Below are positions 31,880 to 36,680 of a stretch of DNA of 64,000 nt, piece by piece (within the stretch, counting starts at the first letter, position 1; each line of letters opens with the position of its first letter). The position numbers and the translations under genes were made by a program. The DNA is from Candidatus Marinacidobacterales bacterium. Lineage in GTDB: Bacteria > Acidobacteriota > Vicinamibacteria > Marinacidobacterales > SMYC01. Location: positions 768,001 to 832,000 of the forward strand of contig CBDCYI010000005.1 in NCBI GenBank assembly GCA_965224085.1, in the 5' to 3' direction. Below the pieces are notes generated by a model. It had not been told where the DNA came from and searched no databases. It worked only from the letters and a program-made list of their open reading frames with translations.

Positions 31880-32041
31880 GATGACTATGGACGAGTTCCG
31901 GTCGGTGAATCCTCTGTCTCGCTTCCGCATTTTGTGAAACTCACGCGTTTAGGTTAAGTTCGGGACGGAGACCGAGACACGCACAAGCACAGCAGCGACC
32001 CGATCGGGTCCGGATTCACGTGGAGATAGAAGAAAAACGCG

Positions 32042-32458
32042 ATGACGGTCCTGCGTCGGTTCGTGGGCGCCCTTTTTGCCGCCGGAGTGCTGGGAATCGG
32101 CATCGAGCTTTGCCTCCTCGGCCATACAGAAGATCGCTGGCAGCTCGTTCCGCTGGTGCTGCTCGGGCTCGGGCTACTCGCGCAGATTTGGCTCGTTTGG
32201 CGCACAAGCGCCGCGAGCGTTCGCGCGTTCCGATCCCTGATGCTTTTATTCGTGCTCAGTGGTTTCGTGGGCCTCTACTTGCACTACAGCGCCAATGTCG
32301 AGTTCGAGCTCGAGATGTATCCGTCGCTCAGAGGACTGAACCTGGTTCGGGAAGCTTTGACCGGCGCGCTGCCGGCGCTCGCTCCCGCGACCATGATGCA
32401 TCTCGGGTTCTTGGGATTGGCGTCTACTTACCGATATCCGAAAGGAGTTACACCATGA
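32042..32458 (+). CDS. hypothetical membrane protein
   Basis: About four hydrophobic helices; ATGA overlap with the next gene. Confidence 0.7.
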   Translation: MTVLRRFVGALFAAGVLGIGIELCLLGHTEDRWQLVPLVLLGLGLLAQIWLVWRTSAASVRAFRSLMLLFVLSGFVGLYLHYSANVEFELEMYPSLRGLNLVREALTGALPALAPATMMHLGFLGLASTYRYPKGVTP

Positions 32459-33099
32459 AAATAAAAGCTTCGCTTGGGTTCGCCATAGCGCTACTCGTCG
32501 CCTTTACCGCCGTGCATGGCGTCGCCCAGGTCGGTAAGAACGACGATGTGGTTAATCCGAACCTCGCCGGGAAAGACGAGCTCCTTCGCCTGGTACATCT
32601 CGACGAGACCCTGGTCGAGTCGATCCTCGAGCGACGTCCGTCCATCGGCATGCTCGATCTCCACGGACTTCTGAAGCAAACCTTGAGCGAGGAAGCGCTC
32701 GAGCAGCTCTACGCGCAACTATTCGTCCCGATCGATCTCAACACGGCGAGCCGTGAAGAGATCCTTCTCGTCCCCGGTGTCGGCCCCCGAATGGCCCACG
32801 AGTTCGAAGAATACCGCCCCTATCAGGCCATGGCGCAATTCCGGCGAGAGATGGGCAAATATGTCGACGACGACGAGGTCGCGCGAATGGAGCAGTACGT
32901 TTTCGTCCCCATCGATCTCAACGCGGCCAGCGAGGAAGACATTCTCACCATTCCGGGTGTCGGGCAACGCATGCTTCATGAGTTCATGGAGTACCGTCCC
33001 TACCGCAGCATCGCACAATTCCGGCGCGAGATCGGCAAGTATGTCGACGACGACGAGCTGAACCGCCTCGCGCGCTATGTGACGCTTCGAACCGAGTGA
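32455..33099 (+). CDS. exported helix-hairpin-helix protein (ComEA/PsbU-like)
   Basis: Signal peptide; two ~60-aa repeats IDLN.AS.E.IL..PGVG. Confidence 0.8.
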   Translation: MKIKASLGFAIALLVAFTAVHGVAQVGKNDDVVNPNLAGKDELLRLVHLDETLVESILERRPSIGMLDLHGLLKQTLSEEALEQLYAQLFVPIDLNTASREEILLVPGVGPRMAHEFEEYRPYQAMAQFRREMGKYVDDDEVARMEQYVFVPIDLNAASEEDILTIPGVGQRMLHEFMEYRPYRSIAQFRREIGKYVDDDELNRLARYVTLRTE

Positions 33100-33278
33100 C
33101 GGACTGTCGAAGGCGCTTTGTTAGATAGGCCTCGCGCGCCACAGCCCGAGCGGTTCTTCTCTCCGTCGTCTCAGTGACATTCCGGCGACGCCCTGTACGC
33201 TTGCCGAAGCATCAGTGCAGCGAAAGCGTGTGTTGCGGGAAGAGTCGGTAGGAAATGTCTGTGTACAAGGCCTCATCC

Positions 33279-33346
33279 CGCGCCTCTGGCGCGAGGCCAG
33301 CATCCTCTCGCGCCTTTGGCGCGAGTCAGTCAGATCGTCTCGCGCC
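33279..33346. repeat. three ~30-bp-spaced CGCGCC-containing repeats, two forming hairpins
   Basis: CGCGCC-TCT-GGCGCG (33279-33293), CTCGCGCC-TTT-GGCGCGAG (33307-33325), half-site TCTCGCGCC (33338-33346). Confidence 0.7.
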
Positions 33347-33511
33347 GGCAAGAAGAGGGTGAACCTGCTGTGCGACAATAGTGAGCCCCAGCCGCTACAA
33401 ACGACCGGGGCTCTGATGTTTGGATGGCCCCCGGAGGAGGCGCTCCACTACAAGTTGAAGCTAGCCTCTCACATCCGGGCGGCCATCGTCCAGCACTTTG
33501 CTGAGTTCCGA

Positions 33512-33925
33512 ATGGCCACCAAACCTGTCGTTCTTCTCCGGCTTTTCTGCCGCAACAAAAGCTGTGGGATGCCTTTCTTCATCTGCAAGTCATGTTACCA
33601 GGGACAGTGCTACTGCGGTCCAACCTGCCGTGACGAAACCCGGCGAGAGAACCAGCGCGAAAATAACCGAAATTACCAGAAAGGTTTCAACTCACGAAAA
33701 CTCCACGCGGCTCGGCAACAGAATTATCGTCTACGCCAGGCGGCGAAAATAGTGACGGAGCAAGGGTTCATTCACCCCAGTAATTCTGGCAGTCTAGGAG
33801 TTCGTGAAATTCAAGCTAGTGGCCCGATGGCTCATTCAATGAAAACGAAGATTGACAGTATCAGATATGCCAAATGCTGTATCTGCGGCCGACGCGGGAG
33901 GCTAAAGGATGTCGAAGCTGGGTAA
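33512..33925 (+). CDS. Cys-rich putative Zn-binding passenger protein
   Basis: CRNKSC...ICKSCYQGQCYCGPTC, basic helix HAARQQNYRLRQ, C-terminal CCICG; resembles small proteins I recall beside IS21/DDE-type transposases. Confidence 0.7.
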   Translation: MATKPVVLLRLFCRNKSCGMPFFICKSCYQGQCYCGPTCRDETRRENQRENNRNYQKGFNSRKLHAARQQNYRLRQAAKIVTEQGFIHPSNSGSLGVREIQASGPMAHSMKTKIDSIRYAKCCICGRRGRLKDVEAG

Positions 33926-34325
33926 TGAACCGCTCACGAGCGATGCTCTGACAGAAAACAATTACGTCCGGACGATTTTGGACCTCTATCTTTCCATTCC
34001 GAACACACCTGAGCGGCCACGGCGCGACGACCGCTTCATCGCGACGCAGCTCTACCGCCAAGGAGTCCCGTTACACGAATTCGAGTGTGCCCTACTTCTG
34101 GGTTGCGCTCGTAGGGAGCTACAAGAACATGAGGAGCCACTGCAGCCCATTCGCTCCCTTCGTTATTTTTCACCTGTGCTCCAGGAAGTGCAAAGTCAAT
34201 ATCTAGACCCGCCTTATGTTCTTTACATTCGAGAAAAACTCTCGGACGTGCTTCGCCCGAAACTACCGAGAAAAAACCGAGCACGAACTCGTGGCATCGC
34301 GCGACAACTCCGATTGCCATGGTAG
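33909..34325 (+). CDS. hypothetical passenger protein
   Basis: Overlaps the previous gene; YVRTILDLY..P.TP.RPRRDDR..A.QLY.QGVP...IRSLRYF.PV..EV pattern recalled from transposon-associated proteins. Confidence 0.7.
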   Translation: MSKLGNEPLTSDALTENNYVRTILDLYLSIPNTPERPRRDDRFIATQLYRQGVPLHEFECALLLGCARRELQEHEEPLQPIRSLRYFSPVLQEVQSQYLDPPYVLYIREKLSDVLRPKLPRKNRARTRGIARQLRLPW

Positions 34326-34369
34326 AGCAAATATCACGATGAGCTTGGACTATTTTCGATTTCGTCAGC

Positions 34370-34510
34370 AGCTTGCCGGCAACGCCATACGTCGCCCTGC
34401 GCTCCTAGCGCCAGGAATGGACATGCGTGCCGGCAATTCTTTTGTGATGGACATCCAGTGGGGAGTTGCGCTTCGAGCGCCAGTACAGGGGCCGATGAAA
34501 CATCACATGC
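34370..34510 (+). ncRNA. putative IS110 bridge RNA (target-binding and donor-binding loops)
   Basis: Two parallel stem-loops (outer stems TTGCCGGC/GCCGGCAA and TGTGATG/CATCACA), each with an inner GCGCT-NNN-AGCGC hairpin followed by CAG and flanked by guides matching the element junctions; exact ends unknown. Confidence 0.8.
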
Positions 34511-34520
34511 GCTGGCGGAA

Positions 34521-35789
34521 ATGAGTTCTTCCATGAATCAACTCAAATACGACTTCTTCGTCGGTATCGACCTGGGTCAATGGCTTCACTTGGCCAGTGT
34601 GGTCGATGCCAAAGGTAACTTCTTGGCGGAGAGAGGCTTCCCCCATAGCCGCGAAGGACTATCGGGAACCATCGACTGGCTTTTGGAAGAGACCTCGCAA
34701 GATACCGAGCGCATCGCGGTGGCGATCGAAAAACCTCATGGGGCCGTCGTCGAGCTCTTTCTTGACCACGGCATCGCCATTTTCTCCATCAATCCCAAGC
34801 AGGTCGACCGTTTCCGCGACCGGCATTCTATGAGCGGCGCCAAGGATGATCGGCGAGACGCCTTCGTTCTCGCCGATTCGCTCAGAACCGACGGCCACCG
34901 CTTTCAGCGCTTGCATCTCCCACCTACGGAGATCCTCGCTATGCGCGGGTTGCTGAGTACCCGCGACCAACTCGTCAAAAACCATGTGGCCCTCAGCTCG
35001 CAGATCCGAGAACTCCTTACTCGTTGCTGGCCTCACCTCGTCTCGCTCGCGCCAAAGGACAAGGCTCTCGACGCTTTTTTCTGCGAGCTCCTAAAACTCT
35101 TCTTCGAATCCAGCCCCAACCCTCTTAGCCGCCACTCCATTGAGACCCTCGCTCAAAAACACCGCATCCGACGTCTAAAACCCGAGAAGATCCTCGATAC
35201 CCTCAAACAAAAACCTCTCCGGGTCGCAACCGCAACCACTCAAGCTACCGCCGAGCATCTCCAACTACTACTCCAGCAGTTGCTCCTCGTTCGACAACAT
35301 CGTCGTGCCTCCGACCAGCATCTCGAGAAGTGGTTCAAGCGCGTGCAAGCACTAACCGACGAGCATTGCTCCGACCCTGCCATTCTTGCCTCTTTGCCCG
35401 GCGTCGGTGCTTACGTGCTCGCCTCCGTGCTCTGCTATGCCCACGACCCCATTCGGCTCCGTAATCTCAACGCCTTCAGGACTCTCGGCGGCATTGCTCC
35501 TGTCACAAAAAAGAGCGGCAAGCGCGGTCAGTTGCGACCAACGATCCTGATGAGGAGAGCTCGCTCTTTGCCCCTCAATAATGCTCTCCACCATTGGGCA
35601 CGCACTGCCGTTTTGCACGACCCCCACTTCAAAGAACACTACGACCGGCTTCGTGACAGAGGCCACAGCCATGCCAGAGCTCTCAGAGGCGTCATGGACC
35701 GCATTCTCCCCATCGCCATTGCGATGCTTCGACAAGGAACCCTTTACGACCCCTCCCGGTGGCCCACAAAAAAAGCGAATCGCGGATGA
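34521..35789 (+). CDS. IS110 family transposase / bridge recombinase
   Basis: DEDD RuvC-like motifs VGID, AIE, KDDRRDA; C-terminal SLPGVG and APVTKKSGK (catalytic Ser); start 34521 or 34533. Confidence 0.95.
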   Translation: MSSSMNQLKYDFFVGIDLGQWLHLASVVDAKGNFLAERGFPHSREGLSGTIDWLLEETSQDTERIAVAIEKPHGAVVELFLDHGIAIFSINPKQVDRFRDRHSMSGAKDDRRDAFVLADSLRTDGHRFQRLHLPPTEILAMRGLLSTRDQLVKNHVALSSQIRELLTRCWPHLVSLAPKDKALDAFFCELLKLFFESSPNPLSRHSIETLAQKHRIRRLKPEKILDTLKQKPLRVATATTQATAEHLQLLLQQLLLVRQHRRASDQHLEKWFKRVQALTDEHCSDPAILASLPGVGAYVLASVLCYAHDPIRLRNLNAFRTLGGIAPVTKKSGKRGQLRPTILMRRARSLPLNNALHHWARTAVLHDPHFKEHYDRLRDRGHSHARALRGVMDRILPIAIAMLRQGTLYDPSRWPTKKANRG

Positions 35790-35811
35790 CTATTACGAAG
35801 AACGTTTTCTC

Positions 35812-35817
35812 TTGATC
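35812..35817 (+). promoter_or_regulatory. outward-facing -35 box (TTGATC) of the predicted circle-junction promoter
   Basis: On circularisation through one CC core it lies exactly 17 bp from TACGCT (33196-33201). Confidence 0.65.
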
Positions 35818-35846
35818 CGGCGTGGGGAGTCCATTCCCCCTAAAGG

Positions 35847-36179
35847 CTAGATTCCGAGCCGTCGCTTGTCTGGAAGCCGGGCCTCTTTTGGAATGGACTT
35901 CATCCACTTGGAGACGCGGGCGACTATCCGGTCTTTGGTTCTCTCTTTTTCAAGCGGGTCTGGCGACTCGTGCAGGTGGATGTCGAGCGCGATCCTGCCT
36001 GCAGCCTCATCTGCGTAGACACTTCTCTCTCGGGACCATTTACCCTTTACTCTCCACAGCCTGTCTCCACCCATCCATCCCTTTTCCTCAACCCATCTTA
36101 GGCTGTGGATTCTCATGAGGCTCACTTCAATTTCTCGCTCAAACAGCTCCCATCGTTCGGGGTCGTAGCTCGTCTTCAA
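35847..36179 (-). CDS. hypothetical protein
   Basis: 110-aa ORF with GAGGAGG upstream; no recognisable motif. Confidence 0.4.
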   Translation of the reverse strand: MKTSYDPERWELFEREIEVSLMRIHSLRWVEEKGWMGGDRLWRVKGKWSRERSVYADEAAGRIALDIHLHESPDPLEKERTKDRIVARVSKWMKSIPKEARLPDKRRLGI

Positions 36180-36385
36180 AACGCCTCCTCGGGAAAACGA
36201 CTGGAGGAGAGCTCACACGCTTGCGCCTTGATCCGCTCAATGCGCCTCGGTCAGCTTGGTCCAGGCTAATTGATTCTCTGACACAACCCTGCAATTTAGC
36301 ATATCTTGTGGTTCTGGCGTTTGGCAAAGAAGTCTTGACAAGAACGTCTTTTTGAGGCACCTACAGCCGTTCCTCTGAGGACCGG

Positions 36386-36680
36386 ATGCAAGGATTCTCA
36401 CTTTTCGAAGCCCAGGCCGGCACCGCCGCACGGCGTTTTCTCTATTCCTCTATCTTTTGGCTGCTGCTTCCGGGGGCCTTTGGCTTGGTTCTCGCGTCGC
36501 TTCTCTATGTGCCCGAGCTTCACGACCGGCTACCCATGGCGGTCAAGCCCTATCTGAGCTTCGGCCGGCTTCGGCCAACCCATGTGAATTTGACGGTTTT
36601 CGGATGGCTTTCGATGGTTTATTGCGGGGCCATCCTTTATATCTTGCCTCGGCTCACGCGGGCGCCGAGGAAAAGCGCAA
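36386..36680 (+). pseudogene. cbb3-type/heme-copper oxidase subunit I N-terminal fragment
   Basis: LSFGRLRPTHVNLTVFGW...YILPRL, after which homology stops and the frame runs into the convergent LysM gene. Confidence 0.75.

Follow-up and report, generated by a model that had tools for sequence, protein, structure and literature searches.

Bridge RNAs are a recently discovered way to direct DNA recombination. The question raised by the locus described here is whether such an RNA is encoded in a 64,000-nucleotide (nt) stretch of contig CBDCYI010000005.1 (positions 768,001 to 832,000 of the forward strand, assembly GCA_965224085.1) from a Candidatus Marinacidobacterales bacterium, a member of the Acidobacteriota, and what it would direct. 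This whole stretch is called the window below, and all coordinates refer to it unless a contig is named. An earlier note, made from the sequence alone, had proposed window positions 34370-34510 as a bridge RNA candidate with two loops built on one scaffold. Our analysis indicates that the interval 34364-34511 is very probably the bridge RNA of an active insertion sequence (IS) of the IS110 group, which would act in the manner of IS621 with a CC core and with protein kinase genes as targets.

The interval adjoins a gene of the expected family:

34521-35789, + strand: IS110-family recombinase, 422 amino acids (aa), ATG start at 34521, directly 3′ of the bridge RNA

The recombinase matches Pfam models DEDD_Tnp_IS110 (PF01548, 3.1e-31) and Transposase_20 (PF02371, 1.2e-11) and scores 162.8 bits with the NCBIfam model NF033542, “IS110 family RNA-guided transposase” (cut-off 140). 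Among solved structures, it matches IS621 (8wt6_A, E 2.2e-7) and ISCro4 (9t56, E 1.9e-6) only. Its GID, IE, DDrrD and kkSGk motifs align to IS621 residues D11, E60, D102/D105 and S241, the RuvC part of the alignment being weak. Judged by its sequence, the product is an IS110 DEDD/Ser recombinase.

Where the element begins and ends was determined from its other copies, which were searched for by BLAST against the window's own genome (6.87 Mb, 12 contigs). About 11 copies (full, deleted or variant) were found, all in differing flanks. The repeat extends from approximately 33189 to 35841, which is far longer than canonical IS110 elements. It is 100% identical on contig C4 and at one site of contig C11 (C11a) over 2647-2653 bp, while a copy at a second C11 site (C11b) is 99.8% identical to that of the window. 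The copy on contig C9 has a 174-bp internal deletion, another three copies are truncated or internally deleted, and three variants are ~91% identical. In the aligned copies, the left junction reads flank-CC-TGTACGC... and the right junction ...GCGTGGGGAGT-CC-flank; all seven main-family left junctions and the single variant left junction have the form (LT)-CC-TGTACGC, where LT stands for the left half of the target. With RT for the right target half and LD and RD for the left and right donor halves, the element and its borders are as follows:

33194-35830, + strand: IS110-family element body, 2637 bp, with boundaries common to copies in differing flanks
33192-33193, + strand: left copy of the CC core
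35831-35832, + strand: right copy of the CC core, from the junction alignment
33194-33198, + strand: RD, TGTAC, paired by the right donor guide
35824-35830, + strand: LD, GGGGAGT, the right end of the element
33185-33191, + strand: LT at the window copy's site, GCGACGC, adjoining the left core
35833-35837, + strand: RT at the window copy's site, ATTCC

The predicted circle form of the element would be 2639 bp long with one core. The site occupied by the window copy is intergenic. A clean orthologous empty site for it was not obtained: in a same-genus genome (G402), the outer flanks lie ~25 nt apart with no IS between them, and window positions 33101-33191 are missing as well. These 91 nt lie between the conserved left flank and the IS.

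We next asked whether the RNA itself is conserved. A search for relatives of the recombinase yielded 60 loci. Most have a protein identity of 33-43%, and they come from Acidobacteriota, Gemmatimonadota, Alphaproteobacteria, Myxococcota and others. The RNA alignment contains 45 sequences, which are the upstream regions of 43 loci, the window and one variant copy; loci with no recognisable donor-loop motif were excluded. As the earlier note had suggested, a covariance model was made from the regions upstream of homologous recombinases. This model (R1) was built from 41 relatives, with the window and loci L006, L014 and L030 left out, and it found 34364-34511 at full model length with 105.9 bits and an E-value of 1.4e-20, the sole match in the window. 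Applied to the genome, a covariance model found ten bridge RNA copies, seven identical and three variant.

The conserved structure consists of five helices, on which RNAalifold and a user-specified structure concur. Of the cells given by 45 sequences and 33 pairs, 93.2% are paired, and compensatory changes occur at 26/33 pairs. None of 500 shuffles matched the observed values on any measure, and controls slid by 1-3 columns had 25-42% of cells paired. Bulged A's are conserved at columns 21, 49 and 147 of the alignment (A2). An extra helix proposed by RNAalifold (CxUCC with GGGG of the left donor guide, columns 100-113) showed no compensatory change and was dropped from the counted structure. 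The parts are:

34364-34511, + strand: bridge RNA, by the extent of the covariance-model match
34373-34436, + strand: target-loop module, outer stem 34373-34385 with 34425-34436, A34382 bulged (helix 1; compensatory changes at 13/14 pairs, 94% of cells paired)
34399-34411, + strand: target-loop hairpin GCGCU-CCU-AGCGC (helix 2; compensatory changes at 3/4 pairs)
34444-34506, + strand: donor-loop module, outer stem 34444-34449 with 34501-34506 (helix 3; compensatory changes at 6/6 pairs)
34468-34480, + strand: donor-loop hairpin GCGCU-UCG-AGCGC (helix 5; 99.6% of cells paired, compensatory changes at 2/5 pairs)

A stem extension in the donor-loop module, 34452-34455 with 34494-34497 (helix 4), is weaker, with 76% of cells paired. 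The twin scaffold is present as first described: the window has two occurrences of TGCGCTNNNAGCGCCAG and no more (34398-34414 and 34467-34483, + strand), against 0.07 expected and with none of 100 shuffles reaching two.

Both hairpins thus read GCGCU-NNN-AGCGC followed by CAG, from which the earlier note had suggested an internal duplication, and their near-identity could be taken as the trace of a recent event in this lineage. We consider this highly improbable. The two-module architecture is found in all 45 relatives, and the two hairpins mostly differ from each other there (for example, GUGAUC...GAUCAC against GCACCACC...GGUGAGUGC); moreover, pseudo-symmetry between the loop that binds the target and the loop that binds the donor is described for IS621 in the available portion of PMC11208158. 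Any duplication would be ancient, and the likeness is more simply explained by a common consensus, G(C/U)GC..GAGCGCC, recognised by the same protein. What stands of the original suggestion is the scaffold common to both loops; a recent duplication is not shown by it.

The guides were read by the rules given for IS621 (here and below, IS621 is described from the available portions of PMC11208158 and PMC11208160): left guides have the sense of the top strand, while right guides pair with the top strand including the core and are followed by two handshake bases (PMC11208158). The 5′ side of loop 1 (13 nt) is CAU-ACGUCGCCC-U and its 3′ side (13 nt) is CA-GGAAUGG-AC-AU; in loop 2, the 5′ side (12 nt) is CA-GUGGGGAGU-U and the 3′ side (13 nt) is CA-GUACAGG-GG-CC. 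The 3′ sides, CAGGAAUGGAC and CAGUACAGGGG, agree with the reverse complements given before for the right guides, GT-CC-ATTC and CC-CC-TGTA. The left and right target guides (LTG, RTG), the left and right donor guides (LDG, RDG) and the handshake bases are located as follows:

34389-34397, + strand: LTG, ACGUCGCCC, same sense as LT plus core; the variant differs at position 3
34414-34420, + strand: RTG, GGAAUGG, pairing with CC-ATTCC
34421-34422, + strand: target-loop handshake bases AC, pairing with donor positions 6-7 (GT)
34458-34466, + strand: LDG, GUGGGGAGU, same sense as the element right end GCGTGGGGAGT-CC; conserved in the clade
34483-34489, + strand: RDG, GUACAGG, pairing with CC-TGTAC at the element left end
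34490-34491, + strand: donor-loop handshake bases GG, the first G pairing with target position 7 (C)

That loop 2 is the donor loop follows from two matches: LDG equals the right end of the element (GUGGGGAGU against GTGGGGAGT) and RDG complements CC-TGTAC of the left end, the reverse complement of GUACAGG being CC-TGTAC. It had been predicted that donor-loop guides would stay conserved, and they do: among the relatives they are conserved and match the element ends, which read GGGGAGT-CC-TGTAC when joined.

The target loop specifies ACGTCGC-CC-ATTCC, from ACGUCGC-CC of the left guide and the complement of RTG. At the seven main-family left junctions, 36/49 LT positions agree with it, and at the seven right junctions 29/35 RT positions do. 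The RNA of the ~91% variant carries LTG ACUUCGCCC and RTG GGUAUGG, which predicts ATACC; the RT of the variant copies reads ATCCC, ATACC and ATACC, and ATACC is present at 0/7 main copies. The same correspondence extends to the relatives, as expected in the earlier note, which had required target-loop guides to covary with insertion flanks. For the 39 of 45 loci with a placeable left junction, representing 22 distinct LTG classes, the LTG matches its own flank at a mean of 7.77/9 positions, compared with 4.81 for loci of a different guide class. On the right, the mean RT match is 3.5/5 versus 1.62 when mismatched (18 loci with a candidate right junction). In relatives L017, L018, L025 and L027, the target guides specify runs of C (GCCCCC-CC-CCCCC), and the flanks match; in an Acidobacteriaceae group the target is CCGCAACG-CC-CCGAT.

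A structured region directly in front of a gene could also be a mere 5′ leader of the recombinase mRNA, with control over how well this mRNA is translated or how long it lasts, its complementarity to ends and flanks being incidental. The minimum free energy (MFE) fold does contain a 10-bp helix between 34359-34368 and 34511-34520, just before the recombinase ATG, that could occlude the ribosome-binding region, and our promoter scan of 33100-35950 (see below) found no separate promoter for the RNA. A leader would, however, have no reason to carry four guide segments that match two ends and two flanks in the strand pattern of IS621, or target guides that change with the flanks across 22 guide classes, and we assign this explanation a negligible probability. 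A bridge RNA may still fold in a way that is coupled to translation through the helix between its 5′ flank and the pre-ATG region; by eye, locus L014 has GUCAGC/GCUGAC at equivalent places.

What, then, is the target? The reverse complement of ACGTCGC-CC-ATTCC is GGA ATG GGC GAC GT, which encodes G-M-G-D-V of the glycine-rich loop of protein kinases, and at the kinase sites the element is invariably antisense to the gene that it interrupts. When empty sites were reconstructed in silico, three kinase genes were restored in frame: ...PYEILSPVGKGG joined to MGEVYKAKDTRL..., ...IGQCG joined to MGDVYLAQDTKL... and ...LGAGG joined to MGVVYRAKDTRL..., with the restored peptides ...GKGG-MGEVYKAKD..., ...GQCG-MGDVYLAQD... 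and ...GAGG-MGVVYRAKD..., respectively. Two left-junction flanks match Pkinase from profile position 13 onwards (E 3e-32 and 1.9e-52), and a third, truncated flank matches at 1e-4, below the cut-off. Homologous kinases were taken from four same-genus genomes and one same-family genome; ...GGN GGN ATG GGC GAG GT... (GGMGEV) is uninterrupted in seven of the eight loci read, the eighth being frameshifted. Three of the kinase sites in the genome are confirmed by Pfam, and three others (C9 and the variant copies v_C11 and v_C4) were read from their flanks as YEI/V...G.GGM.

The guides of related elements point to the same motif. Locus L014 (62% protein identity) has LTG ACUUCACCC and RTG GGGAUGG, which decode to GGG ATG GGT GAA GT, and its flanks are ACTTCGC-CC and CC-ATCCC; locus L030 (90% identity) has LTG ACCUCUCCC and RTG GGAAUGG, decoding to GGA ATG GGA GAG GT, with the left flank ACCTCAC-CC. 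The target of the in-genome variant decodes to GGT ATG GGC GAA GT. As can be seen, the four versions of the target loop (window, variant, L014 and L030) all encode G-M-G-(D/E)-V, their differences falling at third codon positions. The genome contains 61 Pkinase matches, a large paralogous family and therefore a repeated landing site. A scan of the genome with the predicted 14-mer retrieved no perfect and three one-mismatch sites for the main guide and one perfect site for the variant guide, in neither case above shuffled patterns, so that genome-wide site counts alone do not show targeting.

One further kinase gene, outside the window at C11:655150-655400 (- strand), carries, in place of its GGMG codons, the opening bases of the IS left end in reverse-complement form. 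Over ~8 nt of microhomology, this left-end sequence coincides with the I-G-K codons of the kinase, and the kinase is frameshifted; this looks like a scar left by imprecise loss of an IS copy.

The reconstructed kinases also define the core. Several crossover registers are conceivable, as there are three C's before TGTAC on the left and two before ATTC on the right. Two other registers, with GT as the core (LT ...CCCT-GT-CCATTC) or with CC moved by a single base (RD = CTGTAC), were considered and rejected, as neither restores the kinase frames. Only LT(...C)-CC-RT joins the flanks into in-frame kinase genes, and the core is therefore CC; in the guides, RTG and RDG both carry GG in register and LTG carries CC. 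The CC core read in the earlier note is thus borne out by the in-frame reconstruction and by the intact homologous kinases, with the correction that it is no peculiarity of this copy, since the core is CC throughout the sampled clade.

The donor bases that precede the core are GT, as follows from the right end ...GGGGAGT-CC and the left end CC-TGTAC. The handshake described from the letters alone agrees with this: AC of loop 1 (34421-34422) pairs with the donor GT, and with the target GC (33190-33191) it pairs only at G and not at the core-adjacent C. GG and AC together with donor GT are found in 42/45 sequences of the relatives. The first donor-loop handshake base pairs with target position 7 in 32/39 loci, as G:C in 16 and as C:G in 16. 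The sequences are thus those expected if the handshake bases pair with the partner DNA after strand exchange, a function which they would share with IS621. The CC core, the donor GGGGAGT-CC-TGTAC and the handshake bases are near-invariant across the relatives and so are traits of the clade.

By analogy with IS621, we propose the following sequence of events. The recombinase would bind the bridge RNA, whose donor loop would pair with the joined circle ends GGGGAGT-CC-TGTAC, the bottom strand being bound by LDG and the top strand by RDG. The target loop would pair with genomic ACGTCGC-CC-ATTCC in the same way, through LTG on the bottom strand and through RTG on the top strand. Strands would then be exchanged at the common CC dinucleotide. 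Once the top strands have been exchanged, the handshake bases that follow the right guides (AC of loop 1 and GG of loop 2) would pair with the partner DNA. The preferred target would be the antisense strand of GGN-ATG-GGN-GA(C/G/A)-GT, the codons for G-M-G-(D/E)-V in the glycine-rich loop of Hanks-type Ser/Thr kinases.

Several observations do not sit easily with this scheme. The kinase glycine-loop context is present at only six of 11 insertion sites. Many insertions are at imperfect sites, and five, including the window copy, lie in unrelated DNA with partial matches; the window copy, outside a kinase gene, agrees with LTG positions 1-7 at 5/7 LT positions and with RTG at 5/5 RT positions. 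The available text of a 2026 preprint describes “half-match” off-target insertion by IS621, and the partial-match insertions outside kinase genes may be the same behaviour. Among the relatives, five of 18 right ends match RT at no more than 2/5 positions, and these ends are probably mis-called. The LDG spans donor positions -1 to 7; at core position 1 it has a U, so that its contact with the core could at most be a U.G wobble, and its register is 1-2 nt off that of the IS621 LDG. The LDG of the variant has a base change (G to A) with no counterpart change in the variant right end. A scan of 33500-36500 with Rfam 15 gave no matches at E-values up to 1. The single-sequence fold, although it forms the two stem/internal-loop/hairpin modules, has a z-score of -1.7, and 10 of 200 shuffles were as good; being by itself weakly above shuffles, it leaves the significance of the fold to the comparative data. 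Also to be set against the scheme are the distance of the RNA from the left end of the element and from the putative junction promoter, ~1.17 kb, with cargo in between, and the result of a sigma-70 scan of 33100-35950, which gave no promoter-like sites, so that no internal promoter can be proposed.

How, then, would the RNA be made? About 1.15 kb with two open reading frames (ORFs) separates the left end from the bridge RNA, and promoter-like hexamers are present in the two element ends:

33215-33925, + strand: cargo ORF1, Cys-rich, 236 aa from a GTG (start uncertain); 12 homologues, cysteines conserved; partly present in L014
33909-34325, + strand: cargo ORF2, helical, 138 aa; 72 homologues, 20 invariant columns
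35812-35817, + strand: candidate -35-like hexamer TTGATC in the right end; a hexamer beginning with TTG or TTT is at the equivalent place in 13/13 right ends
33196-33201, + strand: candidate -10-like hexamer TACGCT in the left end, 17 nt from TTGATC once right end, CC and left end are joined

The promoter comparison used 13 right ends with plausible RT matches, five doubtful ends having been dropped. In the relatives, a TTG- or TTT-initial hexamer lies 17-18 nt upstream of TACnnn across the junction of right end, CC and left end; it is TTGACA in L021 and L036, and the -10 element has the form TAnnnT in 10/12 left ends. A putative promoter thus spans the circle junction, as far as its sequence can tell. 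It would drive a single long transcript through ORF1, ORF2, bridge RNA and recombinase, from which the bridge RNA would then be processed out. The kinase-codon target, the two-ORF cargo and the promoter-like pair across the circle junction are new with respect to the earlier note.

Neither cargo ORF matched a family in Pfam, NCBIfam or PHROGs, and an Atlas search returned hypothetical Acidobacteriota clusters only. The AlphaFold2 model of ORF1 is too poor for a fold search, with a predicted local distance difference test (pLDDT) score of 45, while that of ORF2 has five helices (pLDDT 79) and no fold match in the PDB (best E 0.76). Relatives of ORF2 at 30-48% identity are present in 21 of 400 other genomes of the phylum (one of them, G049, unpublished), often in at least ten copies. 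In all eight of the loci scanned among L079-L099, the ORF that precedes or encloses the ORF2-like gene encodes an IstB-like ATPase of IS21-type elements (PF01695, E 2e-28 to 3e-70), the ORF2-like gene lying directly 3′ of it or being fused to it, and there is no IS110 gene within 1.5 kb of these ORF2 relatives. The cargo of the IS110 element thus seems to have been borrowed from another IS family. In locus L081, the ORF2-like gene is followed by a Pkinase gene. An ORF1 paralogue at C11:499903-500124 and an ORF2 paralogue at C4:61740-61943 have uninformative neighbours.

The cargo could also mean that a real bridge RNA sits in a decaying or composite locus, where an unrelated insertion split the left end from the RNA, movement is residual or occurs in trans, and the cargo has no role. 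The distance from the left end to the RNA, which is 40-50 nt in canonical relatives, 612 nt in L014 and 1135-1173 nt in the window, L006 and L030, can be read in this way, as can the internal deletions in several copies, the apparent frameshift of ORF1 in the variant copies (two high-scoring segment pairs) and the fact that ORF2 relatives belong to IS21-type elements. On the other hand, three full copies in differing flanks are 100% identical over 2.65 kb including the cargo, and the RDG matches the distal left end. In another genome, L030 keeps the same cargo architecture at 84-90% protein identity, and the ORF2 protein is conserved over 72 homologues. We therefore regard decay as unlikely, though less so than the other alternatives discussed above.

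An element still moving as one unit allows a broader reading, which we put forward tentatively and would not yet bet on. The target loop would be naturally programmed against a coding motif of the kinase glycine-rich loop, its guides tracking synonymous codons, and the kinase family would be a landing pad that is progressively knocked out. The stretch between junction promoter and guide RNA would encode two conserved accessory proteins, one shared with IS21-type elements; the RNA would be cut from the mRNA, and the proteins may act in transposition or its control. Finally, the CC-core clade would extend bridge recombination to sites that lack T at core position 9.

Every defining feature of an IS621-type bridge RNA system that can be tested in sequence was found here, which upholds the two-loop bridge RNA of the earlier note: an IS110 recombinase adjoins, the loops are laid out as in the IS621 type, and their structure has been conserved. 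As in IS621 of E. coli (Durrant et al. 2024, PMC11208160; Hiraizumi et al. 2024, PMC11208158), the RNA lies upstream of a DEDD/Ser IS110 recombinase gene with the target loop first and the donor loop second, left guides have top-strand sense and right guides are complementary, the core lies within the pairings, and 2-nt handshake guides stand 3′ of the right guides. The bulged A's recall the flipped-out A's of IS621, and the loop sides are 13/13 and 12/13 nt compared with 13/15 and 12/14 (PMC11208158). Promoter-like -35 and -10 elements in the right and left ends, across the core, are also described for IS621 (PMC11208160); those of the present element are known as sequences only.

The differences are as follows. 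The core is CC here and CT in IS621, where position 9 is a near-invariant T, recognised by the main chain at G63 (PMC11208158); the IS621 segment E60-A-T-G63 aligns with E-K-P-H-G here. Since the core is CC in this element and across the sampled clade, the element is not a member of the CT-core IS621 subgroup. The recombinase has 422 aa compared with 326-328 in IS621, and its similarity to 8wt6, which lies chiefly in the Tnp domain, reaches only E 2e-7. The LDG ends at donor position 7, while in IS621 it corresponds to positions 1-8 (PMC11208158). Unlike in IS621, the RNA is ~1.17 kb from the left end, behind two ORFs, and the target is a protein-coding motif rather than repetitive extragenic palindromic (REP) sequences. 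ISCro4/IS622, in the available portion of its description (bioRxiv 10.1101/2025.05.14.653916; PDB 9t56), belongs to the same family and has the same guide layout; it is close to IS621, with a CT core, and only distantly related to the recombinase studied here (E 1.9e-6).

The available part of Hu et al. (bioRxiv 10.64898/2026.08.14.744561) describes cargo-bearing “expanded” IS110 elements that exceed the canonical 1.0-1.6 kb and carry extra genes, and complementarity of LTG and RTG to the flanks is a hallmark there too. Unlike in those elements, the cargo of the present one is a small pair of ORFs, placed after the left terminus and before the bridge RNA, moves as a single unit in identical copies, is conserved in a sister lineage, is not plasmid-derived and contains no resistance gene. 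The bridge-RNA/IS110 papers that we searched make no mention of a CC core, and the primary bridge-RNA papers searched make none of protein kinase targets, in the portions available; the clade may be listed in the supplements to Durrant 2024 and Hu 2026. The RNA lies upstream of the recombinase gene, as in the IS110 group, and not downstream as in the IS1111 group. Elements of the latter group reportedly (Siddiquee et al. 2024) encode a seekRNA 3′ of the recombinase gene, are RNA-guided and target repeated sequences.

To our knowledge, the cores of bridge systems characterised so far are CT or NT. The well-populated natural clade described here, in which the core is CC, the donor is conserved and the target guides vary widely, provides candidates for widening the range of addressable sites, and the 22 distinct target guides among 39 loci amount to a natural retargeting experiment. 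Homing to a kinase coding motif is unusual for an IS: a genome rich in kinases is sure to offer many sites, and the price is the knock-out of genes. The cargo between promoter and guide RNA raises the question of how the RNA is produced.

Some of the incomplete copies can be described further. Deletion derivatives are located at C5:333078-334701, C9:115777-118250 and C5:1945120-1946508. One derivative lacks the equivalent of window positions 34525-35549 (the recombinase gene) and retains cargo and bridge RNA; another lacks 33840-34013, which spans the overlap of ORF1 and ORF2, and a further one stops at 34573. The variant copy at C4:1482109-1484000 (locus L008) is truncated at the equivalent of window position 34320, just 5′ of the bridge RNA. 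The copy lies fused within another kinase ORF of the same orientation, while a kinase N-terminus that runs the opposite way forms its right flank, which suggests a rearrangement between two kinase loci. Finally, to the left of the element, a helix-hairpin-helix ORF (32020-33099) contains a direct repeat of ~156 nt, 32722-32877 and 32902-33057, with 76% identity.

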